This document shows positions 1-14,978 of a DNA stretch of 14,978 bases, in pieces (positions within the stretch are counted from its first letter, which is position 1; each line of letters begins with the position of its first letter). The notes below the pieces were generated by a model. It had not been told where the DNA came from. It saw only the letters and a list, made by a program, of their open reading frames with translations, and ran no database searches. A program made the translations under genes and the position numbers. Origin of the DNA: Gemmatimonadota bacterium (GTDB lineage: Bacteria; Gemmatimonadota; Gemmatimonadetes; Longimicrobiales; RSA9); contig JBBDRO010000096.1 of the NCBI GenBank assembly GCA_040905425.1, forward strand, positions 3,414 through 18,391, given 5' to 3'.

Positions 1-3000
1 GGCCGTCCAGGTGATCCCCTCCGGTGAGGTGAGCACGGCGCCATTGAAGCCCACCACTACCCAGTAGGACCCGTTCCATGCCACATCTCTGAGGTGGTTC
101 CCGGCGGAGTTCACGAGCGTCCAGTTCTGCCCATCGGGAGAATGCAGGATGGTGCCGGCGTTCCCGACGATCACCCAGTGGTCCCCGTTCCACGCCACGG
201 CGTTGAGGGGAGTGGTGACAGGCCGGCCTACCCGTGCCCATTCAAGCCCGCCCGGGGAACTGAAAATCTCGCCCCGGGTGCTGACGCCTATGATCGCATC
301 GTCTCCGTACGCCACCGCGTGGGGGATTTGCCCATCGACGGGTGCGGTGCTGAACCGGCTGGAGTATACCGTCCAGGTCGTGGGATCAGCCGCGGCGGCG
401 GACCACGCCATCTCACGGTTGTACGTGCCCACCACGATCCAGGAATCCAGGCCGGTGCGCACGGTCACCTTCTCCGCGGCAGCGGCCCCGTTGCCATCCT
501 GAGCGCGGAGCTGGACGTTGTGGATACCGCGGCTGAGCGTTGAGAGAACGGATGTTCCGGTGCCGATGACACCATCGCGGTTGCTGCGCCACTCCAGCGC
601 GGCGCCGCTCAGGGGGCCGTCCTCGGGGTCCACGGCGCTACCCTGGAAGGTGATGGCCGCCGCCTCCGCGAATACGGCGCGATCGGCCGGGGCGGTCAGT
701 GCCACCTCGGGTGCGCGGTTGGGAACATCCAGGTGCTTGCCCGAAATCCGGAAGAGGCGGCTGAAGGTCCGGTAGCCAGGTTCCACGGGCGTCCACGTTG
801 CACCATCGGCGGAGCGGATCACGGTGGTGGAAGACGAGCCGGCCAGCCACGCCGTGCCATCCCATCCTACCGCCTGAAGGTGGGCGCCGGTCCCGCTGGT
901 CCCTGCCGTCCAGGAGACCCCGTCCGTGGTGTAATGCACGGCACCGGCATCCCCCACCACGACGCACTGGCTGCCGCCACACAGCAGGTCCCGGGCGGGG
1001 TACCCGGGAGCGCCCGGCATGGCCTCCCAGATGGTACCGTCCGCGGACGAGTAGAACGGGTCGAAGGAATTTCCGGTGAGGATCCACCGCGCACCGGTCC
1101 ACCCCGCTCGATAGTGTGTGGCGGGAGCGCCCGAGGAAAATGTCTCCCAGGCGGCGCCATCCGTCGAGCGCACCAGATCCCCCTGGTTGGATCCCGCCAG
1201 CAGCCACTGCTGTCCGTTCCACGCAGGGGTGAAAGGCCGTAGCGAACCGCCATCCCGCCGGAGCGTCCAGGTGGCCAGGTCGGCGGAGGTGAAGATTTCC
1301 CTCTCGGCGCTCGACACGGCCACCCACTGGCCGCCGTTCCAGCCGAGATCCGAGAGCGTGTAGAGCCCAGACGTGGGCACACTATCCCACGTGCGACCAT
1401 CGGCAGAACGGAAGAACCAGCCGCCGGCGCTACTGGTCCCACCCACGATCCACTCGGCTCCGGTCCACCAGATCCGGGCCGCGGCAGAAGGTTGCCCTGG
1501 CGTTACCCGCGGCATCCAGTCGACGCCATCAGGTGACGTGAAGATCCGCAGATCGTTAGCGGCATCCCGCCCCACCGCCACCCACTGGGTGGGGCCATCG
1601 ATGACGAGGTGGATCGAGGCGGAATGAGTAGCGCCGTCCGGCTCCTCGACCACCAGCGTGATGCGGTGAATGCCGAAAGCCAGTTCGCTCGTCACGAACG
1701 TGGCACCCGTACCGAGCCTGCCGTCCAGGTCGCTGTACCAGGTGAGGCTGGCGTCCGGCAGGAAGCTCTGGCTCTGCGGATCCCAGCCTTCCCCCGAAAG
1801 TGTCACCGTCTGGCCCTCTTCCAACGTCGTTTCCGAAGCGGGGGAGAGGATCCGTGCCAGCGGTGCGGGGTTCACGGGTACTGGCGTGCTCGTGGCCACC
1901 GGTAGGAGCCAGTCCCAGGGACCAGCATCCCTGGCCTCCCAGGCACCGTTCACCCGTTCCAGGAAGAGCGGCTCGATCGTGCTCCCCACGTCCGTGTAAC
2001 CCACGGCAAAGGTCCGCTGGCCGTCCGAGGCCACGGACGAATACCAGAACACCTGCTCGGTGCCGGCGTACTCGCGCGTCCACTGGGCGCCGTCCGGATC
2101 GGTCGAAACCCAGATGGTGCCGTCCCACGTGGTGGCCACCCACGTGTCTCCGGTCCATGCCAGCGCCACGGGATTGTCCCCACCCAGGCTCCTGTGCTGC
2201 CAATCCGCACCGTCCGGTGAAACCCAGAGGCCGTCAAACGAAGGCGAGATCCAGACCGTGCCGTTCCACGTCAGGTGCTCCATCGCCCGAGGGGCCGGGG
2301 TGTCCAGTTCGAGCCAGGTCAGGGCATCCTCCGACACGCGAAGGGTCTCGCGGCCGACCACTAGCCACTGCGCGCCGTTCCATGCCACACCACTGAGGTT
2401 TTCGGTCGTACCGGACGCAACGGTCTGCCACACGAGCCCGTCCGTGGAGACCAGAATGGTGCCGTCGCGGCCCACCACCACGAACCGGTCCCCGTTCCAT
2501 GCGGCGTCGAACAGATTCTCCGAGGTGGGAAGCGTCACGCGGGTCCACGCCAGGCCGTCTTCGGAGACGAAGATGAAGTTGGAGCCCGACAACGCCAGCC
2601 AGCGACCACCACCGTGGATGAGGCGTTGCCAGTACTCGGCGGTGGTGAAGGTGGCCGCGGCGGTCCACGTTACTCCGTCCGCAGAGTAGTGCGGTCCGTC
2701 CTCCCACGCATCTGCGTCACGCCCGAGGGCCAGCCAGGGGAACTGAGTTCCCACACCCTCCGCCAGGATGCTGAGCACGTCCAGGTCCCCGACCCGGGCA
2801 TGCAGCGTATTCGTTCCCGGAGTGCTGCCCAGGATCCACTCCTGCACGGCCGCGATGCCATCCGCGTCGGTGGTGGCCAACGGGGGCGTCACGGTGCCAC
2901 CTCCACCGGCCACCGTGAACTCCACGTCCACGCCCTCGAGGAGATTGCCAAAGCCATCCGCCACGCGCACCACGGGCACCACGGGAACGGGGCTGCCGGC

Positions 3001-4830
3001 CGGCGCCGACTGGCCGCCGCCAGTCACGAGCACCAGTTCGGCAGGCGCACCCGCCGCCGCTTCGACTTCGAAGAGGACCGGCTCCAATCCGTCGGCACTG
3101 ATCTCCAGGATGTGGGTGCCCGGTGTCTCCCCCAGGACCCACGTGGCAGGCCCCACCTGCCCGTCCTGCTGGGTGCTCACCGTGGACGGATCCACCGATC
3201 CGCCGCCCTGCAGGATCCGCAGCGTGACGGCCACATCGGCCACGGGGGAGCCGCCCGAATCCACCACCCGGACGACGGGCGCCGGCTGCACCGGTTCTCC
3301 CACCCTACCGGTGGGGCCAGCGGCCTGCACCACTTCGATGGCCGTGGCTACCGGCAGAACGGTGACGCCTGCCGTGCCCAGGGCCTCACCGTGCCGAGCC
3401 ATCACGGTGGTGTTTCCGGCGGCAAGGGCACGTACCACGGCCGATGCGCCATCCGCCTCCAGCGCTAGCACGGCACCGTCCGTCACACTCCACTCCACCG
3501 CCGTGCCGGGGAGTTCGGCCCCCCCGGCATCCACCGCGACGGCTACCAGCGTCTGCTCGGCACCAAGGAACGTCAGCGTTGTAGCGTCTGGCAGCACCTG
3601 CACGGCCGCGGCGGTACGTGCCACGACCGCCGGCGCGGAGACCTCCACCTGGTCCACCCGGGCGGTGATCAGCGCCTCTCCATCCGCCACCGCCTCGAAA
3701 ATCCCCGGTTCCTGCATGGCCACCACCCCGGGGGCGGACGTGGACCAGGCCGCCTGGACGTGGGATATGGAGTGGTCATTTCGGTCCCAGGCTGCCACCG
3801 TGCCGTGCAGCCGCTGCCCCAGATAGCCGAAACGGAACTCGGCCGGCGTGATCTCGAGTCGCACCGGCTTCTGCGTGACGCGCACCGGCACGCGCGCTTC
3901 CACGTCGGGAGTCCCCGCCACCCCGATTACCACTTCACCCTCCCCCACGGCCAGGGTGCGGAACGTCCCCTCCCCCGTACTCTCGAGGAGGCCTGCCGGT
4001 GAGACCACCCAGGTCAGGCTCCGCCCGGAGACCAGCGCGCCGCGGGGGTCCACGGGCTCTGCCCCTATCCGTATCTCCGCGCCCAGAGCATCCGCCTCCA
4101 CCGCGGCAACGTCCGTGCGGATCTCCGCCACCCGCTGCAGCACGGTCACGATGGCGGTGGCGGAGTGCGCACCCACCTCCACCACGATACGTGCTTCCCC
4201 CGGGAGGAGGCCGCGGACGGTGCCGTCCCCGTCCACGGTAGCTACGTCGGGATCCAGGGTGCCCCAGAACGGCACGATCCCCGCGGGGCCTTCCACCTGC
4301 GCCGAGAGCGTGCGCTCCTGGCCTTCCTCGAATGCCAGCTCCGTGGGCTCCACCCGGACGGATTTCACGTCGAGGTTGGCGGGCGGCCCCCTGAACAAGA
4401 CCAAGGCGGCTATCCGCCGCTGATTGCTGGCGGTGGGAAGGTAGGGCCCGCCTCGTCCGCTCCACTCCACGGTCGGCGTCTCCCCCTCCGTGCTGATGAG
4501 CTCGGCCAGGACGTAAATTTCCGTCACGTGCGGAGGCACCGGCACGCTCAGGGGGAGCTCCCATGTTTCGGCATCGGGATCGACCTCGATCTCGGTTCGC
4601 ACCAGAACCGTCTGCCCGGACGTACCCGTGGCCGTGAGGCGAATGCGCCGGATGGGAGCACCGTGCCCGGTCACGGAGGGCGCGTAGGCTGGCGCGAGGT
4701 CGAGCTGGAGCGAGCGGTGGGCGCCCGGGTCACCCGGACCGGCCGGCCCGTCTCCATCGGCACAGGAGAGGAGCAGGGCCCCGACAGCAAGGACGCAGGT
4801 GACGATACGGGGTCGAAGTGAGGTATGCAT
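1..4830 (-). CDS. Giant surface lipoprotein (>1610 aa, 3' end outside window): lipoprotein signal, ~4 Big_2-like Ig domains, 2 Big_1/invasin-like domains, then alternating Asp-box (BNR-like) beta-propellers and PKD/Ig-like domains
   Basis: Manual translation of the minus frame from ATG 4830 is open to position 1. It starts MHTSLRPRIVTCVLAVGALLLS-C (lipobox-like Cys23). Big_2-like segments include FWGTLDPDVATVDGDGTVRGLLPGEARI. Big_1-like segments are PVVRVVDSGGSPVADVAVTL...WVLGETPG and PVVRVADGFGNLLEGVDVEF...WILGSTPG. There are many S-x-D-G-x-x-W repeats alternating with WNG motifs. Absent from the ORF track because there is no stop in the window. Confidence 0.93.
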   Translation of the reverse strand, partial: MHTSLRPRIVTCVLAVGALLLSCADGDGPAGPGDPGAHRSLQLDLAPAYAPSVTGHGAPIRRIRLTATGTSGQTVLVRTEIEVDPDAETWELPLSVPVPPHVTEIYVLAELISTEGETPTVEWSGRGGPYLPTASNQRRIAALVLFRGPPANLDVKSVRVEPTELAFEEGQERTLSAQVEGPAGIVPFWGTLDPDVATVDGDGTVRGLLPGEARIVVEVGAHSATAIVTVLQRVAEIRTDVAAVEADALGAEIRIGAEPVDPRGALVSGRSLTWVVSPAGLLESTGEGTFRTLAVGEGEVVIGVAGTPDVEARVPVRVTQKPVRLEITPAEFRFGYLGQRLHGTVAAWDRNDHSISHVQAAWSTSAPGVVAMQEPGIFEAVADGEALITARVDQVEVSAPAVVARTAAAVQVLPDATTLTFLGAEQTLVAVAVDAGGAELPGTAVEWSVTDGAVLALEADGASAVVRALAAGNTTVMARHGEALGTAGVTVLPVATAIEVVQAAGPTGRVGEPVQPAPVVRVVDSGGSPVADVAVTLRILQGGGSVDPSTVSTQQDGQVGPATWVLGETPGTHILEISADGLEPVLFEVEAAAGAPAELVLVTGGGQSAPAGSPVPVVPVVRVADGFGNLLEGVDVEFTVAGGGGTVTPPLATTDADGIAAVQEWILGSTPGTNTLHARVGDLDVLSILAEGVGTQFPWLALGRDADAWEDGPHYSADGVTWTAAATFTTAEYWQRLIHGGGRWLALSGSNFIFVSEDGLAWTRVTLPTSENLFDAAWNGDRFVVVGRDGTILVSTDGLVWQTVASGTTENLSGVAWNGAQWLVVGRETLRVSEDALTWLELDTPAPRAMEHLTWNGTVWISPSFDGLWVSPDGADWQHRSLGGDNPVALAWTGDTWVATTWDGTIWVSTDPDGAQWTREYAGTEQVFWYSSVASDGQRTFAVGYTDVGSTIEPLFLERVNGAWEARDAGPWDWLLPVATSTPVPVNPAPLARILSPASETTLEEGQTVTLSGEGWDPQSQSFLPDASLTWYSDLDGRLGTGATFVTSELAFGIHRITLVVEEPDGATHSASIHLVIDGPTQWVAVGRDAANDLRIFTSPDGVDWMPRVTPGQPSAAARIWWTGAEWIVGGTSSAGGWFFRSADGRTWDSVPTSGLYTLSDLGWNGGQWVAVSSAEREIFTSADLATWTLRRDGGSLRPFTPAWNGQQWLLAGSNQGDLVRSTDGAAWETFSSGAPATHYRAGWTGARWILTGNSFDPFYSSADGTIWEAMPGAPGYPARDLLCGGSQCVVVGDAGAVHYTTDGVSWTAGTSGTGAHLQAVGWDGTAWLAGSSSTTVIRSADGATWTPVEPGYRTFSRLFRISGKHLDVPNRAPEVALTAPADRAVFAEAAAITFQGSAVDPEDGPLSGAALEWRSNRDGVIGTGTSVLSTLSRGIHNVQLRAQDGNGAAAAEKVTVRTGLDSWIVVGTYNREMAWSAAAADPTTWTVYSSRFSTAPVDGQIPHAVAYGDDAIIGVSTRGEIFSSPGGLEWARVGRPVTTPLNAVAWNGDHWVIVGNAGTILHSPDGQNWTLVNSAGNHLRDVAWNGSYWVVVGFNGAVLTSPEGITWTA

Positions 4831-4885
4831 GGCGGTTGGCCGGAGCGAGGAGTTCAGCGGGAATGGGTTGCGCGTAACAAAGCCA

Positions 4886-4914
4886 ATACCATGCGCCGCT
4901 CACTGCGTTGTCAA
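4886..4914 (-). promoter_or_regulatory. Possible sigma70-type promoter for the giant lipoprotein gene
   Basis: Minus strand TTGACA (4914-4909), 17 nt spacer, then TGGTAT. Perfect -35 but weak -10, about 55 nt upstream of ATG 4830. Confidence 0.3.
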
Positions 4915-5041
4915 GGACTTCGTGCTCGGAGGCGCCAGGGGCGAACGGATGGCTGCGGCGCTGATCCACCCCACGCCGCCCCCCGAAGCCAACGCCCCCG
5001 CCGCGGAGAGAAAGAGCGCGGGGAGCTTCGAGACGACGCAG

Positions 5042-6355
5042 TCAGGCGATGGGTGAATCCGGCAGGGCTGACGCCGCCGGTCCGCTCGCGGTGCGGGTGC
5101 CGAGTCGCCGCATGATCACGGCCCGTGCGGGGGCGAAGCCGAGCGCGATCGTGCCTCCCGCAATCCAGGAGCCGAGGCTCGGTGGGAAGCCGAGCCGCGC
5201 TGCGAGCACGTCGGCTACCACATTCTCGATGCCGGCGAACGTGAAGAGCAGCGCAGCGCTCAACAGGCCGTAGAGCGTGGTGTGGCGGATCATCAGGCCG
5301 GGATCGAGCGCGCCGCGAAAGAACACGGCGAAGGCAGTGCCGCAGAGGAACGCCAGCAGCGCGGCGGGAAGCGTCAGCAACAGCCAGTCCTCGAGCGACC
5401 AGCCCGCCCAGCCCGCGACCATCTCGATGATGGTGCCGAGCAGCACGATCCACCCACCGGCTGCGATACCTTCCACGATCCACAGCATCCTGCGCCGCTC
5501 GTCCGCGCTCGCCGCCTTGTAATTGGCCAGGCTGAACGTCAGTCCCACACCGGCCGTCACCATCACGAGGATCGTGAGATAGGCAACCATGAGTGCCAGC
5601 GTCGGCAGCTCGCCTCGCAAGGCCGCGGGCAGGAGCGGCCACACCACAGCCACGCCCGCCGGTATGATGCCAAGCAGCCAGATCCTGCGGGACCGAAAGA
5701 ATTCCAGCAGTTGCTCACGCTTTTCACGATCCGTGCTGAACCCGCGGCGTGCCGCGGTGCGCAGCGAACCCAGCCACGCCGGCTGTACCGACCGTACGCG
5801 ACGCGCCGGCCGCGTGAGCACGTAGTCGGCCGCCCGCTCCAGTACCGCGAGTGACCCGACCGTGCCCCCGGGAGCGTCTGCCAGTTCGACTTCGTGTATT
5901 CGTAATGTGCGCGGATAGAATACGCTGAAGCGCGCGAACGCAGCCGCCATGAGGCCCGGAACGGCCATGAGCAGCGGGCGGAGGAACGCCTGCACGAGGC
6001 GATCGTCGCGCAGCGCCTGGTACCACGCCGGTCCTCGAGTCGGTGCGACCAGCACCAGGCCGATCAGCACGCACAGCAGCACAGGTATCAGGGCGAATTC
6101 GCGGGCTCCGCGGTCGAGTCGCAGGCGCCAGACCATCACGATACCGAGCGCGCCCGCGAACAGCCCCGCCCCGTGCAGCCCGAATTCGAAAATGCGGAGC
6201 GCCAGCCGGTCCGGGCGCATGGGTGGCAGGCTGGCGAGGTGCACCAGACTCGCGAACGCGCCTATGGCAACCAGGGTCGTCAGAATGATGGGAGCGGCAA
6301 GGCGTCCTGCGCGCTGGAGCAGCATTTCCTCCCGCTCGTAGAATAGGAAGTTCAT
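5042..6355 (-). CDS. Polytopic membrane protein resembling the N-terminal multi-TM sensor region of membrane signalling proteins, with no catalytic domain
   Basis: 437 aa ORF with about 9-10 hydrophobic segments. The C-terminal pattern ERRRMLWI...AFAVFFRGALDPGLMIRHTTLYGLL...ALGFAPARAVIMRRL resembles TM input regions that usually precede HisKA/GAF/cyclase domains. Start is uncertain: ATG 6355 (inside repeat copy 1) or ATG 6325 (after GGGAGG). Confidence 0.75.
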   Translation of the reverse strand: MNFLFYEREEMLLQRAGRLAAPIILTTLVAIGAFASLVHLASLPPMRPDRLALRIFEFGLHGAGLFAGALGIVMVWRLRLDRGAREFALIPVLLCVLIGLVLVAPTRGPAWYQALRDDRLVQAFLRPLLMAVPGLMAAAFARFSVFYPRTLRIHEVELADAPGGTVGSLAVLERAADYVLTRPARRVRSVQPAWLGSLRTAARRGFSTDREKREQLLEFFRSRRIWLLGIIPAGVAVVWPLLPAALRGELPTLALMVAYLTILVMVTAGVGLTFSLANYKAASADERRRMLWIVEGIAAGGWIVLLGTIIEMVAGWAGWSLEDWLLLTLPAALLAFLCGTAFAVFFRGALDPGLMIRHTTLYGLLSAALLFTFAGIENVVADVLAARLGFPPSLGSWIAGGTIALGFAPARAVIMRRLGTRTASGPAASALPDSPIA

Positions 6356-6391
6356 CCCACCTTGTCATCTTCGAGCCAAGGTAGGGCAGCG
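6340..6391. repeat. Dispersed intergenic element, copy 1
   Basis: AGAATAGGAAGTTCATCCCACCTTGTCATCTTCGAGCCAAGGTAGGGCAGCG matches copy 2 at 40/52 positions without gaps. Confidence 0.8.
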
Positions 6392-6449
6392 TGCTGGCAC
6401 GGGACAATGGCTCTGTAGGCGGGCGTCGGGGGTGGCGCCGGAATGCAGC

Positions 6450-7505
6450 CTACCGGAACTCCTCCATCAGCCGGTCCAGCTCCGCTTCACCGGGACACAG
6501 CGTGTCGAACGGGAGGTCCGTGAGGGGTTCCTCGACCGTGCCCAGGACGTCGTGCATGTCGCCCGCCCCGGGCTCGATGAAGAGCAGCCCGGTGGGCACC
6601 TCGCCGACGTCCTGCCGCTCCCGGAGGTAGCGGTACACTACGTCCCTGCGGGTAGGGTCGAACGCGTCCGGCACCTTCCGGAAGCGGACCCGGCTGCCGT
6701 CGTGCATGGCCACGTCCCGCACCTCGCCTTCGGCATAGTCCACGGAGATGGCGGCCCGGAGCGGGACGAAATCGGCCTCCACCACCGGCCGGTTCTGCTG
6801 TCGGGTGTACCGATAGCTCTTGGTCGACGCTTCGTGGTCGTTGAAGGTCACGCACGGGGAGATGATGTCCACCAGCGCGAAGCCCCTGTGCCGGATGGCC
6901 GCTTTCAGGATCGGCACGAGCTGGGCCTTGTCACCGGAGAACGACCGGGCAACGAAGGTGGCGCCCAGCGTCAGGGCCAGGAACACCGGGTCGATGGGCG
7001 TCTGCCGGTTCGCCTCGCCCTTCTTCGACTTCGAGCCCACGTCCGCGGATGCCGAGAACTGCCCCTTCGTCAGCCCGTAGACGCCGTTGTTCTCCAGCAC
7101 GTAGAGCATGTCCACGTTCCTGCGGATGGCGTGGCAGAGGTGCCCGAGCCCGATGGACAGGGAATCACCGTCACCCGAGACGCCGATGTAGGTCAGGCCC
7201 GCGTTGGCCGCCTGTGCGCCCGTGGCCAGGGCCGGCATGCGGCCGTGTACGCCGTTGAACCCGTGGGCCGTGCCGAGGAAGTACGTGGGCGTCTTGGCGC
7301 TGCACCCGATCCCGCTCAGCTTGGCCACGCGGTGAGGCGGGATCTCGAGCTGGAAGAACGTGTCGACGATTGCGGCGGTCACCGAGTCGTGCCCACACCC
7401 CGCGCACAGCGTGGACATGGATCCCTCGTAGTCCAGCCGCGTGAGGCCGAGGGCGTTGGTCTCCCGTTTCGGGAACCGGATCCGGGGCTTCGGGATGTAT
7501 GTCAT
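6450..7505 (-). CDS. korB: 2-oxoacid:ferredoxin oxidoreductase beta subunit
   Basis: LCAGCGH, SGIGCS, HGR and the TPP-binding GDGD...LENNGVYGLTKGQ motif, plus SPCVTFN. The start overlaps the alpha subunit stop (ATGA). Substrate specificity cannot be determined from sequence. Confidence 0.95.
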   Translation of the reverse strand: MTYIPKPRIRFPKRETNALGLTRLDYEGSMSTLCAGCGHDSVTAAIVDTFFQLEIPPHRVAKLSGIGCSAKTPTYFLGTAHGFNGVHGRMPALATGAQAANAGLTYIGVSGDGDSLSIGLGHLCHAIRRNVDMLYVLENNGVYGLTKGQFSASADVGSKSKKGEANRQTPIDPVFLALTLGATFVARSFSGDKAQLVPILKAAIRHRGFALVDIISPCVTFNDHEASTKSYRYTRQQNRPVVEADFVPLRAAISVDYAEGEVRDVAMHDGSRVRFRKVPDAFDPTRRDVVYRYLRERQDVGEVPTGLLFIEPGAGDMHDVLGTVEEPLTDLPFDTLCPGEAELDRLMEEFR

Positions 7506-9346
7506 TCGCCCGCGGCCTGGAGCGGCGGCGGCGCGGGGGCGGCGGCGAGGCCGAGGGCATCGAGGACGGCGGTGACGACGGGGCCGGGCGAGAGCGGCTG
7601 ACCGCCGTAGAAGCGCAGCGGCTCCATCCGCTCCAGCGGCACGCCGGTCTCGCCTGCCAGGAGGAAGCGGAGCTGGGCGTCCCTGTTCTGCTCGACGACG
7701 AACACGCGCTCGTGAGCCTCGACGAACTCCCGCGCGGCGCTATGGAACGGGAACGCCCGGACCCTTAGCACGTCCGTGGCCACGCCCGCGGCCGCCAGCC
7801 GCTCGCGTGCCTCGAGGACCGCGCTCCGGCACCCGCCGATGGTCACGAGCCCCACGGTGGCGCCCGGGGAGCGGACCACCTCGGGGGCCGGTGACGACGC
7901 CGTGGAACTCATCACCTTGTCGGCAATCCGATCCACCACCTCGAGGTAGGCCTCGGCGTCCTCCGTGTACCGGGCGTGGCTGTCGTGCCCGGAGCCACGC
8001 GTGAAGTACGCGCCTCGGGGGTGGACGCCGGGGAGGGTGCGGTAGGGGACGTGGTCGCCATCCACGTCCAGGTAGCGGGCCACCTTCGCCCCGGCCTCGA
8101 GCTCCTCCGCGGACAGCACCTTGCCGCGGTCGGGGCGGTAGCGGTCATCCCAGCGGAGCCGGGGCACCACCCAGTCGTTCATGCCGATGTCCAGGTCCGA
8201 GACCACGAACACCGGCGTCTGGTACCGCTCGGCCAGGTCGAACGCGGCCACCGCGAACTCGAAGCACTCCGCCGGGTCCGCCGGGAACAGCGCAATGTGC
8301 TTGGTGTCTCCGTGGGAGGCATAGACCACCGCGAGCAGGTCCCCCTGCTGGGTCCGGGTCGGCATCCCCGTGCTCGGACCGGTCCGCTGGATGTCGAAGA
8401 AGACCGCCGGGATCTCGGCGTAGTACGCCAGGCCGATGAACTCGCCCATCAGGGAGATCCCCGGGCCGCTCGTGGCCGTGAACGCGCGGGCGCCCATCCA
8501 ACCGGCGCCGATCACCATGCCGGCCGCCGCCAGCTCGTCCTCCGCCTGGACGACGGCCGCGCGCATCCGCCCCGTCTCCGGGTCCTTCCGGTAGCGCTCC
8601 ACGAACGCGCGGAACGCGTCCACCAGCGACGTGCTGGGCGTGATGGGGTACCAGCCCACCACGGTGGCCCCCGCGTAGATGCAGCCGAGGGCGGCCGCCG
8701 TGTTCCCGTCGATCAGTACGGCGTCGTCGTTCGACGCCTGGCGCAGCAGCCGGATGGGGAGCGGGCAGTCGAACCGGTCGCGCGCCTCGTCACGCCCCAG
8801 CTGGAGCGCCTCGAAGTTGGCGTCCAGCAGCTGCTTCTTCCGGCCGTACGTCTCGGTGATCAACCCCTCGATGACGTCGGGCTCCACGTCCAGCAGGACC
8901 GAAAGGGCGCCCAGGTAGGCTATGTTCCGGAGCAGCGTCCGAGCCCGTGCACCCTCGAACCGCTCGTTGCACAGCCGCGCGAACGGGATCCCCAGCAGCG
9001 TCACGTCCTCGCGCCGGGCTTCCCGCTGGAGCGGCCAGCTCGAGTCGGCGAGCACCCAGCCCCCCGGCACCACGTCCGCCACGTCCCGCATCTGCGTGGC
9101 CGGATTCAGCGCCACCATCAGGTCCGGCCGCTCCGCCCGCGCCGTCCACCCGCTCCCGTTCACCCGGATCTCGTACCACGTGGGAAGGCCCTGGATGTTC
9201 GACGGGAACAGGTTCTTCCCCGAGACGGGGATCCCCATCCGGAAGATGGCCTGCATCAGCAGCCCGTTGGCGCTCGCCGAGCCCGTACCGTTGACGGTGG
9301 CGATCTTCAGCGCGAAATCGTTGACCCGCTCCCCAGCGCTATCCAT
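7502..9346 (-). CDS. korA: 2-oxoacid:acceptor oxidoreductase alpha subunit (fused gamma-alpha)
   Basis: N-terminal gamma-type domain (TVNGTGSASAN, FPSNIQG), then YPITPS, QAEDELAA, TATSGPG, QRTGPSTGMPT and VEQN motifs. Confidence 0.95.
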   Translation of the reverse strand: MDSAGERVNDFALKIATVNGTGSASANGLLMQAIFRMGIPVSGKNLFPSNIQGLPTWYEIRVNGSGWTARAERPDLMVALNPATQMRDVADVVPGGWVLADSSWPLQREARREDVTLLGIPFARLCNERFEGARARTLLRNIAYLGALSVLLDVEPDVIEGLITETYGRKKQLLDANFEALQLGRDEARDRFDCPLPIRLLRQASNDDAVLIDGNTAAALGCIYAGATVVGWYPITPSTSLVDAFRAFVERYRKDPETGRMRAAVVQAEDELAAAGMVIGAGWMGARAFTATSGPGISLMGEFIGLAYYAEIPAVFFDIQRTGPSTGMPTRTQQGDLLAVVYASHGDTKHIALFPADPAECFEFAVAAFDLAERYQTPVFVVSDLDIGMNDWVVPRLRWDDRYRPDRGKVLSAEELEAGAKVARYLDVDGDHVPYRTLPGVHPRGAYFTRGSGHDSHARYTEDAEAYLEVVDRIADKVMSSTASSPAPEVVRSPGATVGLVTIGGCRSAVLEARERLAAAGVATDVLRVRAFPFHSAAREFVEAHERVFVVEQNRDAQLRFLLAGETGVPLERMEPLRFYGGQPLSPGPVVTAVLDALGLAAAPAPPPLQAAGE

Positions 9347-9347
9347 G

Positions 9348-11132
9348 TCAGACCGTTTCCTCGACCTCTCGTCCCGCGTACGGGATCAGCAGATCGAACT
9401 TCCGCATGTCCCACGCGGCCGTCGGGCACCGCTCGGCGCACAGCCCACAATGAACGCACAGGTCCTCGTCCTTGACCATGATCCTTGCCGTGTGCGGGAG
9501 CGGCTCCGACGCGTAGAGGGGCTGATCCAGGTTCGCGGCCGGCGCCTCGAGCCGGGTTCGGAGCTCGGCCTCGTCGCCGTCCCAGGTGATGGTCAGGCAG
9601 TCCACCGGGCAGACGTCGATACACGCGTCGCACTCGATGCACAGCGGCGCCGTGAAGTGGGTCTGGATGTCACAGTTCAGGCACCGCTCCACTTCCCGGA
9701 GCGTGCCTGCCACATCGAACCCGAGTTCCGCCTCGACGTCCAGGCTCGACAGCCGCTTCTCGAGCTCGGCGAACCGCATGGGCGTGCGGTCGGCAAGGTC
9801 ATAATAGTTCGAGTAGCTCCACTCGTGGAGCCCCATCTTCTGCGTGACCAGGTTCATGCCGTATTCCGGCCGGTCGTGCAGGTCGCGGCCCTGGCAGTGG
9901 AGGTGCATCGAGATGGCCGCCTGATGCCCGTGCTCGACCGCCCAGATGATGTTCTCCGGACCCCACGCCGCGTCCCCACCCGCGAAGACCTCCGGCCGCG
10001 TGGTCTGGTGCGTTGTCCGGTCCACCACCGGCTGGCCCCACTCGTCGAACTCGATCCCAACGTCCTGCTCGATCCATGGGAAGGCCGTATCCTGCCCGAT
10101 GGCCAGGATGACCGCGTCGCAGGGGATCACCACGTCCCGCTCATGCTCCTGGTGGAGCCGGCCCGTATCGTCCTCCCACGTCCGCAGCACCTCGAACTCC
10201 ATCCCCACCAGCCGTCCGTCCTCCACCACGTACCGCTTCGGCGAGTGATTCTCCACGACCTCCACGCCTTCCGCCTCCGCGTCCTCCAGCTCCCACGGGC
10301 TGGCCTTGAAGTAGCCCCGGGGCTTGCGCGCCATCACCTTCACGTCCTCCCCGCCCAGCCGCTGCGCCGACCGGCAGCAGTCCATGGCCGTGTTCCCCAC
10401 CCCGATCACCAGCACCCTCGGCGCGACGGACGTCACGTGGCCGAACGCCACCGACGCCAGCCAGTCGATCCCGATATGGACATCCTCCGAGTCCCAGCGT
10501 CCCGGCAGGTCCAGCTCCTTGCCGCGGGGCGCTCCGGACCCGATGAAGACGGCGTCGTACCCCTCCGCCAGGAGCGCCTCCATGCTGTCGACCGTCGTGT
10601 TCAGCCGCAGGTCCACCCCCATGTCCAGGATGTAGTCGATCTCTTCCTGGAGCACCGCCGGCGGGAGGCGGAACTTGGGGATGTTGTTCCACATCAGCCC
10701 ACCCGCCTTCTCCGTCTTCTCGTAGATCGTCACCTCGTAGCCCAGCGGGAGCAGGTCGTTCGCCACGGTCAGCGACGCCGGCCCCGCGCCCACGCACGCG
10801 ATCCGCTTCCCGTTCTTCACCTCCGGCGCCCTCGGCAGCAGCTCCCGCACGTCGTCCCGGAGGTCCGCGGCCACGCGCTTCAGACGGCAGATGGCAACCG
10901 GCTCCTCGTCGACCCTGCCGCGGCGGCACGCCGGCTCGCACGGCCGGTCGCACGTCCGGCCCAGCACGGCCGGGAACACGTTCGATTCCCGGTTCAGCAT
11001 GTACGCGTCCGTGAACCGGCCCTGGGCGATGAGCCGGATATAGCCAGGCACGTCCGTGTGGGCCGGGCACGCCCACTGGCAGTCGACCACGCGGTGATAG
11101 TACTGCGGATTCCCTACGTTAGTGGGCTCCAT
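9348..11132 (-). CDS. GltD/NfnB-like FAD-dependent NAD(P) oxidoreductase with N-terminal Fe-S domain and C-terminal 2x[4Fe-4S] ferredoxin domain
   Basis: N-terminal CQWACPAH and GRTCDRPCEPAC; GAGPAS and IGVGNTAMDC dinucleotide-binding motifs; FAGGD; C-terminal RCLNC, CIECDACIDVCP and CVHCGLCAERCP. I prefer the start MEPTNVGNP at ATG 11132 (4 nt after the upstream stop) to the track's 11180, which would overlap the upstream gene. Confidence 0.92.
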   Translation of the reverse strand: MEPTNVGNPQYYHRVVDCQWACPAHTDVPGYIRLIAQGRFTDAYMLNRESNVFPAVLGRTCDRPCEPACRRGRVDEEPVAICRLKRVAADLRDDVRELLPRAPEVKNGKRIACVGAGPASLTVANDLLPLGYEVTIYEKTEKAGGLMWNNIPKFRLPPAVLQEEIDYILDMGVDLRLNTTVDSMEALLAEGYDAVFIGSGAPRGKELDLPGRWDSEDVHIGIDWLASVAFGHVTSVAPRVLVIGVGNTAMDCCRSAQRLGGEDVKVMARKPRGYFKASPWELEDAEAEGVEVVENHSPKRYVVEDGRLVGMEFEVLRTWEDDTGRLHQEHERDVVIPCDAVILAIGQDTAFPWIEQDVGIEFDEWGQPVVDRTTHQTTRPEVFAGGDAAWGPENIIWAVEHGHQAAISMHLHCQGRDLHDRPEYGMNLVTQKMGLHEWSYSNYYDLADRTPMRFAELEKRLSSLDVEAELGFDVAGTLREVERCLNCDIQTHFTAPLCIECDACIDVCPVDCLTITWDGDEAELRTRLEAPAANLDQPLYASEPLPHTARIMVKDEDLCVHCGLCAERCPTAAWDMRKFDLLIPYAGREVEETV

Positions 11133-11136
11133 CGCT

Positions 11137-11403
11137 TCAGCCGGTTGGAGGGAAAAGGCGTTCCGCGGGATCCGGGTCACCCAGGGCGGTGGGCGGCGAG
11201 GGTGATGCCTCCGCCCACGCGGCGTGGGCTTCCTCGGCGGCGTCCAGCGGGCAGCACCAGCCCGTGCAGCGGGTGGGGTAGTCGAGGCAGCGGAGCGCGG
11301 CCGGATGGGACGTCTTCAACCGCTTCCGTACCGGCACGCCCTTCCTCAGGACCACGGGCACGTTCCGGTCGACGGCGGAACAGTACGCTCTGCGCACGTC
11401 CAC
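11137..11403 (-). CDS. Small Cys-rich hypothetical protein (88 aa), first gene of the oxidoreductase operon
   Basis: GGAGG lies 5 nt before GTG 11403, giving MDVRRAYCSAVDRNVPVV...RCLDYPTRCTGWCCPL. Its TGA ends 4 nt before the oxidoreductase ATG. Confidence 0.7.
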   Translation of the reverse strand: MDVRRAYCSAVDRNVPVVLRKGVPVRKRLKTSHPAALRCLDYPTRCTGWCCPLDAAEEAHAAWAEASPSPPTALGDPDPAERLFPPTG

Positions 11404-11511
11404 GGTCACCTCCGGGAGGGGAGGGGATGATCGGCGCTCGGAGCGCCGCGTATGAACGGTATATGCAGGAAAGCGGGCGGGCCGCTTCTGATCCCGGAAC
11501 GGTCGTCCACG

Positions 11512-11522
11512 AATCTAACACA
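11512..11522 (-). promoter_or_regulatory. Possible extended -10 promoter of the oxidoreductase operon
   Basis: Minus strand TGTG-T-TAGATT fits TRTGnTAnnnT. It lies about 110 nt upstream of GTG 11403 in otherwise very GC-rich DNA. Confidence 0.4.
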
Positions 11523-11639
11523 GCCGTGCCCGCGCCGGCCAGCGGAGGCGGCCGGCCCGCTCCCGAGGGGGCGCCTCAGGCGCACTGACCGCTGCCCGCG
11601 GCATGCGCATTATCGGCCAACTGGACCTCCCGGACCCCG

Positions 11640-11695
11640 GGGATAGGAAGTTCAACCCACCTTTGCGTCGCTGAGGCAAGGTAGGTCGGCGGAGC
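11640..11695. repeat. Dispersed intergenic element, copy 2
   Basis: GGGATAGGAAGTTCAACCCACCTTTGCGTCGCTGAGGCAAGGTAGGTCGGCGGAGC is 48/56 identical to copy 3, ungapped. Confidence 0.9.
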
Positions 11696-11801
11696 TTACG
11701 GCCGGCACCAGTCACCCGTGGGGCGACCCACCGTAATGGAGGCGTGCGAACACGTCCACACTTCCGTGGGATATTGAGGACAGGTGCGCCCGGCGAACAC
11801 T

Positions 11802-11823
11802 TCCCGCTCGGCACGAAGCGGGA
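11802..11823 (-). terminator. Terminator-like hairpin
   Basis: TCCCGCT...AGCGGGA inverted repeat immediately after a minus-strand TAG (11826-11824). The U-tract is poor (AGTGTT). Confidence 0.35.
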
Positions 11824-11941
11824 CTACTCCTCCCGGTTCCGGCCGAACTTCCGGATCAGCGTCTGCCTCATGCGCTCCAGCCATGGCGCCCGACTGTCGG
11901 TTCGATGGGTTCCACGGGACGCGTGCCGGACTTCAGCGGCG

Positions 11942-12196
11942 TCACGTCCGCCAGCCGGGGGGGAAAGCGTTCATCGGCAGTCCGCTGCCATGGCGCCAGA
12001 GGGCGTGCATGCCGGCGCTCATGAGCAGCGCCCCGACCAGGGCCAGCGCCGCCCCCCCCGCCATCGACCGGTAGGCGGGAAGACCGATCGCGGGTGCGGT
12101 AGCCCGCGTCCAGGCCCACAGCACCGCCGGGAGCAGGACGGCGAACAGTGCCCCGTACAGGATGCGTCCGCCTACTCCGCTACGCGCGCTTGCCAT
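11942..12196 (-). pseudogene. Truncated N-terminal fragment of a PEMT/isoprenylcysteine carboxyl methyltransferase-family membrane protein
   Basis: Two TM helices followed by ALWRHGSGLPMNAFPP. In this family that motif directly precedes 'xxLVxxGxYxxxxHP/NP', but here the frame stops 4 codons later and no frame continues with the family motif. Confidence 0.65.
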
Positions 12197-12699
12197 TGCA
12201 CCACCTCATGTATGGCCCAACCGGCGGGGGTCGAGACGCCCTCCGCCCCCGGACCCACCACGCGCCCCCAGCGGAGTTCCACGAGGGGCAGGCGCCATGG
12301 CGGCAGCGTCATGACCAGCCGCTCCGCATAGCCCCAGCCGTCCAGATGCAGGGCGCCCACGCGCAGCCGGACGCGCGCAGCCGGCACCAGGCACTCCCAG
12401 TCGACCGCGCCCGTCCTGTCTCGGTAGAGCCGGCGAAGAATCGGGGCGGCCGTGGGAGACCATTGGCCGTCCACACCCAGGCGGTGACACTGCCAGCCGA
12501 GAACGCCATCGGCATCGGCGAGCGGTCCGCTTCCGGGCGACAGGGTGGACCGCTCCACCAGGGGACCCGTTGGCCGGCTCAGCAGCGTGGCACCGTAGCG
12601 CACCCTGAAGGCACGCCAATGCACGCGCGCGGCGTATCCGATGAAGGCGGTGCCGTCATCACTGACCACGTCCAGATACCATTTGACCAAACGAAACAT
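12172..12699 (-). CDS. Hypothetical Trp-rich protein, probably CrtC/AttH/tocopherol-cyclase-like fold, possibly internally deleted
   Basis: MFRLVKWYLDVVSDDGTAFIGY...LDGWGYAERLVMTLPPWRLPLVELRWGR...GWAIHEVVQW (175 aa). The WYxD, GxGYxE and WGR motifs are characteristic of that fold. It overlaps the start of the methyltransferase fragment. The frame is also open upstream through repeat copy 3. Confidence 0.65.
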   Translation of the reverse strand: MFRLVKWYLDVVSDDGTAFIGYAARVHWRAFRVRYGATLLSRPTGPLVERSTLSPGSGPLADADGVLGWQCHRLGVDGQWSPTAAPILRRLYRDRTGAVDWECLVPAARVRLRVGALHLDGWGYAERLVMTLPPWRLPLVELRWGRVVGPGAEGVSTPAGWAIHEVVQWQARVAE

Positions 12700-12785
12700 C
12701 GGGTCTCGCCAGGTGCGGCTGATGCGGTTGATCACGCCGCGTGCCGAGCCGCTCGTGGCTGCTGCGGCGGCGCGGCACCGAGCAA

Positions 12786-12841
12786 GGCATAGGTAGTTCA
12801 ACCCCCCTTTTCGCGGCTGAGGCATGGTAGGTCGGAGGAGC
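12786..12841. repeat. Dispersed intergenic element, copy 3
   Basis: GGCATAGGTAGTTCAACCCCCCTTTTCGCGGCTGAGGCATGGTAGGTCGGAGGAGC, followed by the hairpin GGGTGGCC-AGC-GGCTACCC (12845-12863). Confidence 0.9.
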
Positions 12842-12911
12842 CCCGGGTGGCCAGCGGCTACCCCCGCCGCGAGCTTTCCCGTTCGCCCGCGCATCGATAA
12901 CGTGATCGATC

Positions 12912-13595
12912 ATGACAGAACCCCGCCCATCCGACTTCCTCGATGACCCCCTGGACCCCGTGGCGGTCCGCATTCTCGGCGCCCTGGTGGAGAAGGAGTT
13001 CACCACCCCGGACAACTACCCCCTCTCCCTGAACGCCCTCACCGGCGCGTGCAATCAGGCCACGAACCGTGAGCCGGTGATGAGCCTGGCGGAGGAGGAG
13101 GTGGCCGCCGCCCTCTCCACCCTGGCCCACCGCTCGCTGGTCCGGGAGGTGCACCGCAGCGACGCCCGGGTGAAGCGCTATCGCCATCTGCTGGCGGACA
13201 CCCTGCACCTCCACCCGGCGGAGCTGGCGGCCCTGGGCGTCCTCCTGCTGCGGGGGCCCCAGACGGCGGGAGAGATCAAGGGGCGCACCGGGCGCATGGT
13301 GGAAATTGTGGACGCGTCCCACGTGGAGCTGACGCTGGAGGCGCTGGCCGCCGTGGCCGTACCGCTGGCCGTCCAGCTACCGCGGCAGCCGGGGCAGAAG
13401 GAGGCACGCTGGGCGCACCTTCTCGGCGGGGAGCCGCCCACCGGCGCCGACGGCACAGCGGCGGCGGGGGAGCCGGTCACCGCGCCCCGTCCACCCAGCC
13501 GGGTCGACCTCCTCGAGGAGGAGGTCCGTACGCTGCGCGCAGAGGTCGAGGCGCTGCGCGGCGCATTCCAGGCCTTCCGCGAGGAGTTCCGGTAG
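12912..13595 (+). CDS. yceH: YceH family protein (DUF480/UPF0502)
   Basis: RILGALVEKEFTTPDNYPLSLNALTGACNQATNREPVM, RVKRYRH, LLLRGPQTAGEIKGR, PGQKEARWAHLL and a C-terminal coiled coil are all family hallmarks. Confidence 0.95.
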   Translation: MTEPRPSDFLDDPLDPVAVRILGALVEKEFTTPDNYPLSLNALTGACNQATNREPVMSLAEEEVAAALSTLAHRSLVREVHRSDARVKRYRHLLADTLHLHPAELAALGVLLLRGPQTAGEIKGRTGRMVEIVDASHVELTLEALAAVAVPLAVQLPRQPGQKEARWAHLLGGEPPTGADGTAAAGEPVTAPRPPSRVDLLEEEVRTLRAEVEALRGAFQAFREEFR

Positions 13596-13710
13596 CCCTT
13601 TTCGGTAGCCCCGTAGCGGCGAGGGGGGGGAAGGCGCCATACTGTTTCATCCGGAGCGCCCCCGGCGGCGCCGGACCTCCAGCAGATTCGCAACACCCCA
13701 GTGAGGCAGC

Positions 13711-14775
13711 ATGTCCCGACATTTCCTCCCGGCCGTCATGGCCGCGGCGGCGCTCTGCGCCTGTGAGCCCGTCACCGCCCCCGACTACGACGACGACGGC
13801 GACGGTGGCGGCAACGGCCCCACCACGGGCCAGGTGGCCTTCTGGACGGACGTGGCGGGGCTGGTGCCCATCGACGTGCAGGTGGGCGGTACCACCACGC
13901 GCATCGCCACGGCGCACACCGCCGCGCCCGCATGCGGCGGGTCCGGCACGGCCACCGTGACGCTGAGCGCTGGCAGCCATGCCTACGCCGGCGCCAGCAC
14001 CACCGGCGTGACCTGGAACGGCTCGGTGGACGTGGCCGCCGGCGGGTGTCTGCGCTTCCGCCTGACGGGCAGCGTGCCGCCCGGGTCCACCGACTTCTCC
14101 GCGCCCAGCACCTACTTCGCCGATCCGAGCGGGACGCTCGGCATCGGGTCGAGTTCCACCACGGGCTTCACGCTGACGGCCACCACCACGTTCGTCCTGC
14201 GCTTCGTCTCCGAATACCAGGCGCAGGCAGCCATCATCCCGGCGAACCAGCTCGACGCCTTCCGGAACGGCCAGGGCTTCACCGGCTGGGCCCTCTTCGA
14301 CCGCAACATCGGCACGCAGACGGTGACCCTCGGCCCCGGGCAGTACTACGTGGGAGTGCGCAACGTCACCCAGGCCTCCAACCGGTACCGGGCAGAGCTG
14401 GACTATGACATCCAGCTTGCGCCGGAGAACGGCTACACCTTCAGCTACGTGGATAGCCCCCTCCAGGGCGCGGAGACCGTGGGCGCCAACGGGGGCATGC
14501 TCTGGCACGGCTTCACGATCCAGGAGGGCTACCGCTACCTCCTGGACGGTGCCAGCCTGGGGCTGGAGATGTACATCATCCCGGCCTCCCAGCTGAATGC
14601 CTTCCGGGGCGGCCAGACGTTTCAGTATTACCCCGACTACAGCGGTAGCGACGGCGCCTACCCGGGACTCTGGGAGTTGAAGCTGCCGCCCGGCAGCTAC
14701 TACCTGGCCGTGCACAACCCGGGCAGCATCGGCGGCCCCATCACGTACCTCATGGAGCGCTGGCGCATCAACTAG
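13711..14775 (+). CDS. Lipoprotein with an N-terminal two-Cys beta domain and two tandem PPC/DUF1883-like beta-sandwich repeats
   Basis: GAGG 4 nt before ATG; signal MSRHFLPAVMAAAALCA-C; acidic/Gly linker; internal repeat IIPANQLDAFRNGQGF...TLGPGQYYVGVRN versus IIPASQLNAFRGGQTF...KLPPGSYYLAVHN. Strong GC3 codon bias. Confidence 0.85.
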   Translation: MSRHFLPAVMAAAALCACEPVTAPDYDDDGDGGGNGPTTGQVAFWTDVAGLVPIDVQVGGTTTRIATAHTAAPACGGSGTATVTLSAGSHAYAGASTTGVTWNGSVDVAAGGCLRFRLTGSVPPGSTDFSAPSTYFADPSGTLGIGSSSTTGFTLTATTTFVLRFVSEYQAQAAIIPANQLDAFRNGQGFTGWALFDRNIGTQTVTLGPGQYYVGVRNVTQASNRYRAELDYDIQLAPENGYTFSYVDSPLQGAETVGANGGMLWHGFTIQEGYRYLLDGASLGLEMYIIPASQLNAFRGGQTFQYYPDYSGSDGAYPGLWELKLPPGSYYLAVHNPGSIGGPITYLMERWRIN

Positions 14776-14978
14776 AGCAGGGACCTGCCGCCGGCCGCGC
14801 GGCGCGCGTGGCGCGGCGAGGCGGGCTTGCCGGATGGGAAGCGACGCTGCGCGTTCTTCGTCGCCGTCGCCGGGATGATGCGTAACCGCTGAGCGGGCTA
14901 CGAGTCACCGGCTGCCACCCAATCTGCGCGCACGCATGGTCTGCGGCCCTAGCGTCAGCACGACACCCGTGACGCTGC

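Follow-up and report, generated by a model that had tools for sequence, protein, structure and literature searches.

The analyzed window is a stretch of 14,978 nucleotides (nt) from the Gemmatimonadota assembly GCA_040905425.1 (contig JBBDRO010000096.1, positions 3,414 to 18,391, forward strand). It contains three copies of a repeat, with a complete 2-oxoacid:ferredoxin oxidoreductase operon between copies 1 and 2 and partly broken genes between copies 2 and 3 (Table 1). A first-pass annotation had described three same-strand copies with ungapped identities of 40/52 (copies 1 and 2) and 48/56 (copies 2 and 3), which our recount reproduced, and had proposed that an element of about 55 bp serves as a new site for protein binding or recombination or as a structured RNA. 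As set out below, it is practically certain that the three repeats are the oriIS (right or origin) ends of a rolling-circle insertion sequence (IS) of the IS91/ISCR family that lacks its transposase gene. We use G000 for the genome of the window, C for its contigs (the window lies on C96), L for loci fetched for comparison, and G031 for a relative.

Table 1. Repeat copies and neighboring genes in the window (aa, amino acids).
Feature	Position	Strand	Remarks
Copy 1, solo oriIS end	6339..6428	- (coding strand of the missing transposase)	outer end 6339, inner break 6428
Copy 2, solo oriIS end	11639..11726	-	ISCR1 oriIS core 18/22; inner limit approximate
Copy 3, solo oriIS end	12785..12872	-	same site occupied in a sister contig of 92-95% identity; inner limit approximate
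Membrane protein gene, up to 437 aa	5042..6355	-	no Pfam match; adjoins outer end of copy 1
Three-gene 2-oxoacid:ferredoxin oxidoreductase operon (FAD/Fe-S protein, alpha, beta), intact	6450..11132	-	Pfam; between copies 1 and 2
Probable 3' end of a gene	11824..11957	-	inferred: open frame with its stop at 11824; out-of-frame fusion with the broken gene on its right
PEMT/PAP2/Lgt-domain membrane protein gene, first ~80 codons	11958..12196	-	truncated here; at least 562 aa and intact in sister contig
Hypothetical gene, 175 aa (267 aa in sister)	12172..12699	-	upstream partner of the PEMT fusion gene, conserved
DUF480 gene	12912..13595	+	PF04337, E 5e-57; inner side of copy 3

All three copies share one strand, and their similarity extends to ~88-90 nt per copy, well past the ~55 bp annotated at first. 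The third pair, copies 1 and 3, agreed at 35/52 positions. As the best ungapped 52-nt match in ten base-shuffled versions of window positions 6301-12900 reached 32-34/52, the similarities of copy 1 to copy 2 and of copy 2 to copy 3 are well above chance, whereas that of copy 1 to copy 3 is marginal when taken alone. Conservation is highest in the terminal 22 nt, the oriIS core, and two copies have a damaged core; the outer terminal sequence, the candidate nick end, is AGGGATAGG. The terminal 22 nt lie outside the inverted arms to which conservation had previously been ascribed: the arms are imperfect and their constant 14-nt spacing holds, but in copy 3 they are degenerate (CCCCCCTT / ATGGTAGG). 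The copies had also been called essentially intergenic, which needs a restriction, as the frame of the membrane protein gene on the minus strand begins within copy 1, with an ATG at 6355; the likelier start of this gene would be at 6325. Contigs from a second sample of the same study span all three copies (4500-8324 with 19 differences and 9939-14797 with 1 difference), and the arrangement is therefore not an assembly artefact.

The repeat is not confined to the window. When the genome and its relatives were scanned with a model of the three copies, as the first-pass annotation had suggested, the three-copy profile matched 16 sites at E<=0.12 in the 4.1-Mb genome, an iterated profile matched 17 sites at E<1e-5 (best reversed-genome E 0.057), and a sequence-only covariance model, for which 13 of the 14 training rows came from this genome, gave 19 matches at E<=0.01. 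In the same order, 39 of 149 other genomes were matched at E<=0.01, mostly with one to six weak matches each. These genome-wide and order-wide copies make the repeat a dispersed family rather than a local duplication. Stricter searches recovered little: a 45-nt degenerate pattern gave 0 matches over the genome contig collection, a 23-nt pattern with 2 mismatches was found in 1 of 60 relatives, and blastn of copy 2 against plasmids returned only matches at E=2, of which the one inspected was an oriIS.

The identity of the repeat is revealed by its position relative to transposase genes. As test loci, we used 80 genome and 5 plasmid loci encoding relatives of a transposase fragment on contig C19 (55 of the 85 with at least 1300 nt of downstream sequence) and scanned them with a profile built from the three window copies alone. 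At E<0.1, nine matches were obtained. Eight lie on the strand opposite to the transposase and downstream of it, the ninth upstream; among the eight, the distance from the transposase stop was 233-259 nt in seven cases and 433 nt in one. At E<=1, 15 of 18 matches were downstream on the opposite strand, and the reversed-sequence control of the same 85 loci gave no match. The ISCR1 locus was matched by the three-copy profile at E 0.007. The distance between the stop and the terminal base was 185-256 nt in eight loci and 232 nt in ISCR1, which is exactly the published length of the ISCR1 oriIS region (232 bp; PMC6218425) and thus supports the identification. Moreover, copy 2 agrees with the published 22-bp ISCR1 oriIS (PMC13023784) at 18 of 22 positions, and PF04986, the Y2 HUH transposase, was found on L047 and L058.

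The genome itself provides the same picture. Five of its copies have transposase remnants inside and in the expected orientation: C2:64044 retains more than 100 C-terminal codons with the stop ~240 nt from the end, C2:56774, C19:7504, and C76:20722 retain the last codons only, and the copy on C56 has an internal transposase piece; PF04986 was matched at C76 and C19. The subfamily is GC-rich, and its closest transposases come from Gemmatimonadota, which makes a Gemmatimonadota host probable. With the match to the ISCR1 oriIS, a catalogued IS end, the novelty that had been attributed to the repeat is lost, while the fallback suggestion of an orphan IS end was right, with IS91/ISCR as the family. 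Rather than a new system of regulation or recombination, the repeats represent ordinary mobile DNA.

In the window, the left edge of each copy is its outer end; the transposase gene, now lost, would be expected on the right side, encoded by the minus strand. Neither a transposase gene, as already stated in the first-pass annotation, nor a terIS is present in the window, so that the copies are ends and not complete elements. An intact transposase was not assembled in the genome, which yielded fragments only, although a collapsed copy could be hidden at contig ends, where remnants occur. An inverted partner was missing among the 25 longest inverted pairs of the window, and on the contig the profile finds plus-strand copies only. 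Such an absence agrees with the structure of IS91-family elements, whose two ends are unlike and which have no terminal inverted repeats (PMC13181058). An IS1595-family end, of which the left edge had seemed reminiscent, is similar only in being an IS end: the inverted partner and the terminal inverted repeats flanking a DDE transposase are absent, and the relatives carry the Y2 HUH enzyme (PF04986) instead of a DDE enzyme.

In the IS91 family, the HUH transposase initiates at oriIS and terminates at terIS, termination often fails and leads to one-ended transposition, oriIS contains one or two imperfect palindromes, and in IS91 the last 82 bp suffice as oriIS (PMC13181058); the transposition of ISCR elements itself is described as being without experimental proof (PMC13393415). 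The previously described arms are the first oriIS palindrome, and a second, variable palindrome further inward was seen by eye. The 8-bp arms pair in 74% of cells, compared with 31-60% in slid registers, although 33 of 500 shuffles were as good. This pairing, together with the constant spacing, is what speaks for a host site for site-specific recombination or a transcription factor, or for a structured RNA. Against it, position, strand, and sequence all match oriIS directly. An Rfam scan of 6000-13200 at E<=1 gave no match, the copies folded no better than shuffles (z-scores -0.25 to +2.15), covariation was not above shuffles (52/500), and none of the three tyrosine recombinase matches in the genome adjoins a copy. 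As to the origin of the repeat, such a host site or RNA is already refuted by the profile scan of the transposase loci, and we grant it hardly any probability. Readings as attC, as a dif/FRT-like site, or as an extracytoplasmic function (ECF) sigma factor promoter had been weighed by eye against consensus sequences and were dropped after the oriIS match.

A fixed tetranucleotide, like the target words CTTG, GTTC, and GTCC that adjoin oriIS in canonical IS91, IS801, and IS1294, was not found: 15 ends in the genome had 15 different words, among them CTTG once, with one row mis-anchored in a tandem repeat. In relatives, 38 ends had 31 words, none of which was CTTG, GTTC, or GTCC. The subfamily is thus ISCR-like rather than of the canonical IS91 type. 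With ISCR elements (ISCR1 and ISCR2/ISVsa3), it shares the terminal core, the strand and distance at which the end lies from the HUH Y2 transposase of intact relatives, imperfect palindromes near the terminus, the lack of a fixed target word, and variable DNA beyond the end. It differs in being GC-rich and, in the window, in lacking transposase and terIS. The outward promoter of ISCR1 is not kept, and resistance genes are not involved.

How the ends became solo can be followed best for copy 1. In a different study (run X4, record 17), a sister contig matches window positions 5037-6428 at ~93% (93 differences), including the membrane protein gene and copy 1, while the flanks of this unit differ on both sides in the sister lineage. 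The similarity of copy 1 to the C112 copy of the same genome and to the sister contig both stop at 6428, and past this point the sister contig has the same element interior as C112 and contigs in other runs (30 letters compared). The insertion site is shared and the window copy is the shorter one; these alignments make it most likely that copy 1 lost part of its length after insertion and became joined to the operon flank. Copy 3 was found at the same site in the metagenome locus L152 (92-95% identical), in which both the hypothetical gene and the PEMT/PAP2/Lgt gene are intact, with 267 aa and at least 562 aa; copy 3 is thus old and predates the split of the lineages, and the surrounding region has decayed in the window. 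The hypothetical gene has lost 92 codons in frame near 12234-12251 between imperfect short direct repeats, and the break of the PEMT gene is ~230 nt from copy 2 and not at the oriIS joint. The inner lengths that copies have in common are graded, from ~36 to ~300 nt. In IS801, right-end miniatures of 229-679 nt were trapped, and most of the genomic IS801 fragments were ascribed to reorganisation (PMC3189936).

In our view, the solo ends are probably decayed remains of longer IS91/ISCR insertions that were cut back by deletions and rearrangements. According to published IS91 work, the HUH transposase would nick one strand at oriIS and copy inward, here from left to right on the plus strand, and the imperfect palindromes would be its recognition structures. 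Later deletions and rearrangements would have shortened these insertions to transposase-less ends, with the terminal 85-90 nt outlasting the rest of the element and sitting at the joints of a plastic region. The enclosed metabolic operon would be host DNA that ended up between two element remains, and any role of the ends would be limited to providing short homologies for recombination or serving as substrates of a transposase provided in trans.

Several observations weigh against this history. Truncation after insertion was seen for copy 1 only, and copies 2 and 3 could have been born short; even for copy 1, the apparent continuation of the sister contig beyond 6428 was followed over 30 letters. 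The inner break of copy 1 directly follows GTCG, which is the IS801 target word CGAC in reverse complement and would fit a termination made by the transposase, with a chance of roughly 2-5% in this base composition as judged post hoc. Many copies end at around 85-100 nt, little more than the 82 bp of the minimal IS91 oriIS, as would be expected under selection for mobile mini-ends but equally under decay. An empty site was found for none of the three copies. Finally, in the C76:779 copy (L001:411-874), oriIS is joined directly to a transposase fragment that reads away from it, so that the normal layout is reversed.

The break after GTCG and the near-minimal length also speak for active non-autonomous mini-elements born short by premature rolling-circle termination, as the IS801 miniatures of Pseudomonas syringae pv. 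phaseolicola were (229, 360, and 679 nt; PMC3189936), but we consider such an origin unlikely. The IS801 miniatures are likewise transposase-less right-end pieces of graded lengths; the present copies are shorter (~90 nt), more numerous (~19), and without a conserved target or terminal tetranucleotide. In an extension of this idea, to which we likewise give little credence, same-strand tandem copies would delimit modules (5.3 kb from copy 1 to copy 2, 1.1 kb from copy 2 to copy 3) that a transposase acting in trans would cut out and move. A precedent is the tandem-oriIS sandwich proposed for ISCR28 by Yuan and colleagues, as reported in PMC12772301, in which genes are likewise bracketed by same-orientation oriIS ends; in contrast, the window copies have no adjoining ISCR transposase, and any capture of the genes that they bracket would be hypothetical. 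Copies do cluster on one strand (3/3 on C96, 3/3 on C80, and 5/5 in G031), genes between copies 2 and 3 are truncated, the sister lineage differs in the flanks of both the membrane gene with copy 1 and the operon, and among 38 ends in relatives, 17 are solo (10 others have transposase sequence on the inner side, and for 11 the available DNA is too short to decide). However, opposite orientations also occur (C2; L152), copy 1 is longer in the sister lineage, the copies have diverged (35-48 of 52-56 positions) with damaged cores in two, an intact transposase was not assembled, and the PEMT gene is broken away from the oriIS joint. Neither a short form recurring with the same inner end at different sites nor a circle was found. 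For a replication-strand bias of the copies, the GC skew was too weak to orient contigs.

A further explanation is that the ends were kept as drivers of the neighboring gene, like the outward promoters in the oriIS region of ISCR1 (PMC6218425). Each copy had been described as lying upstream of a minus-strand transcription unit, and in the own genome the gene outside the end indeed points away in 13 of 15 scored copies (p ~0.02-0.03, null 0.59-0.60). This bias was not replicated in relatives, however, with 19 of 29 (p 0.34 versus 0.6) after 17 matches without the core motif and 2 duplicates had been dropped beforehand. Copy 3 additionally sits directly upstream of the plus-strand DUF480 gene. 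One sigma-70-like outward site lies inside copy 1 (9/12), but none was found in copies 2 and 3, the hexamers aligned with ISCR1 PCR1-2 are not kept in copy 2, and the genes outside copy 3 are broken. We regard a promoter role as very improbable, and decay of longer insertions as the better account of these ends as well.

The 2-oxoacid:ferredoxin oxidoreductase operon consists of host metabolic genes and is not part of an element. Its gene order was identical in the loci of all eight relatives compared, and none of these loci had an oriIS match better than E=1; the operon flanks differ in every genus, so that synteny is uninformative. The gene of the FAD/Fe-S protein was present in 22 of 40 relatives. 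Upstream of this gene, a small open reading frame on the minus strand (window 11137-11409) has ~50 codons kept in four of the eight relatives' loci, with 38-54% identity and no Pfam match, and is possibly a small operon partner. A DNA search for the source of 11690-11965 gave no match in 300 other genomes of the order. The hypothetical gene and the PEMT gene correspond to a conserved two-gene unit, a 267-aa protein without Pfam match followed by a PEMT-PAP2-Lgt three-domain membrane protein (L152:2001-4465, L154, L155), which is broken in the window. In L152, a further oriIS copy in opposite orientation (534-587) lies ~480 nt beyond DUF480, at the place taken by a lipoprotein gene in the window. 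At the left of the window (1-4830, minus strand), a large secreted protein with Ig-like domains and beta-propeller-like repeats is encoded (at least 1610 aa; 1735 aa on the contig).

Some observations concern the family outside the window. Relative G031 has five same-strand oriIS ends within 33 kb (G031:C1:1816684-1849710; L137, L167, L168), each with transposase sequence inside, and an intact enzyme of a related subfamily may be obtainable from this cluster. The terminal GGGATA(G) core is tandemly duplicated in short form at several ends (L005, L140, L143, L147, L162), possibly by repeated insertion or by slippage at the nick site. A separate array of palindromic repeats (12-nt palindromic core, period ~90 nt), which resembles repetitive extragenic palindromes (REP-like), occurs at contig ends of the genome (C76:1-360, C56:33060-33276, C30:47760-47991, C29, C88).

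The oriIS ends themselves are hit by another mobile element. Two copies on C2 (15734-15755 and 64135-64156; L184, L187) lost their outermost bases to a foreign end, which occurs at 12 sites in 8 of 401 genomes and, by eye, runs straight into oriIS at 7 of the 12 (further loci: L166, L179, L180, L182, L183, L186, L188). This foreign end is the right end of an IS110/IS1111-type element (PF01548 and PF02371 on L180), which has a long downstream non-coding region with short matches to both sides of the oriIS target, as a seek or bridge RNA would have. No title or abstract on oriIS as a target of an IS110-family element was found in the literature.

Miniature IS801 right ends (PMC3189936) and, second-hand, tandem oriIS sandwiches (PMC12772301) are already in print, and a literature search with most subscription journals outside its range found no paper devoted to ~90-nt solo oriIS families in environmental bacteria. 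What is new here is the addition of a Gemmatimonadota subfamily to the ISCR group and the annotation of an unlabeled repeat as mobile-element debris. Annotation pipelines miss such solo oriIS ends, although these mark rearrangement joints and also serve as targets for an IS110-family element. If tandem ends were mobile in trans and excised the DNA between them, they would provide a simple test system for ISCR-type gene capture. The boldest extension, for which the odds are poor, is that the 90-nt ends are live transposase-less rolling-circle origins that divide the chromosome head to tail into modules, including the whole 2-oxoacid:ferredoxin oxidoreductase operon, which a transposase rolls out in trans from oriIS to oriIS; if true, this would be a bacterial counterpart of gene shuffling by non-autonomous Helitrons, acting on core metabolism in Gemmatimonadota.

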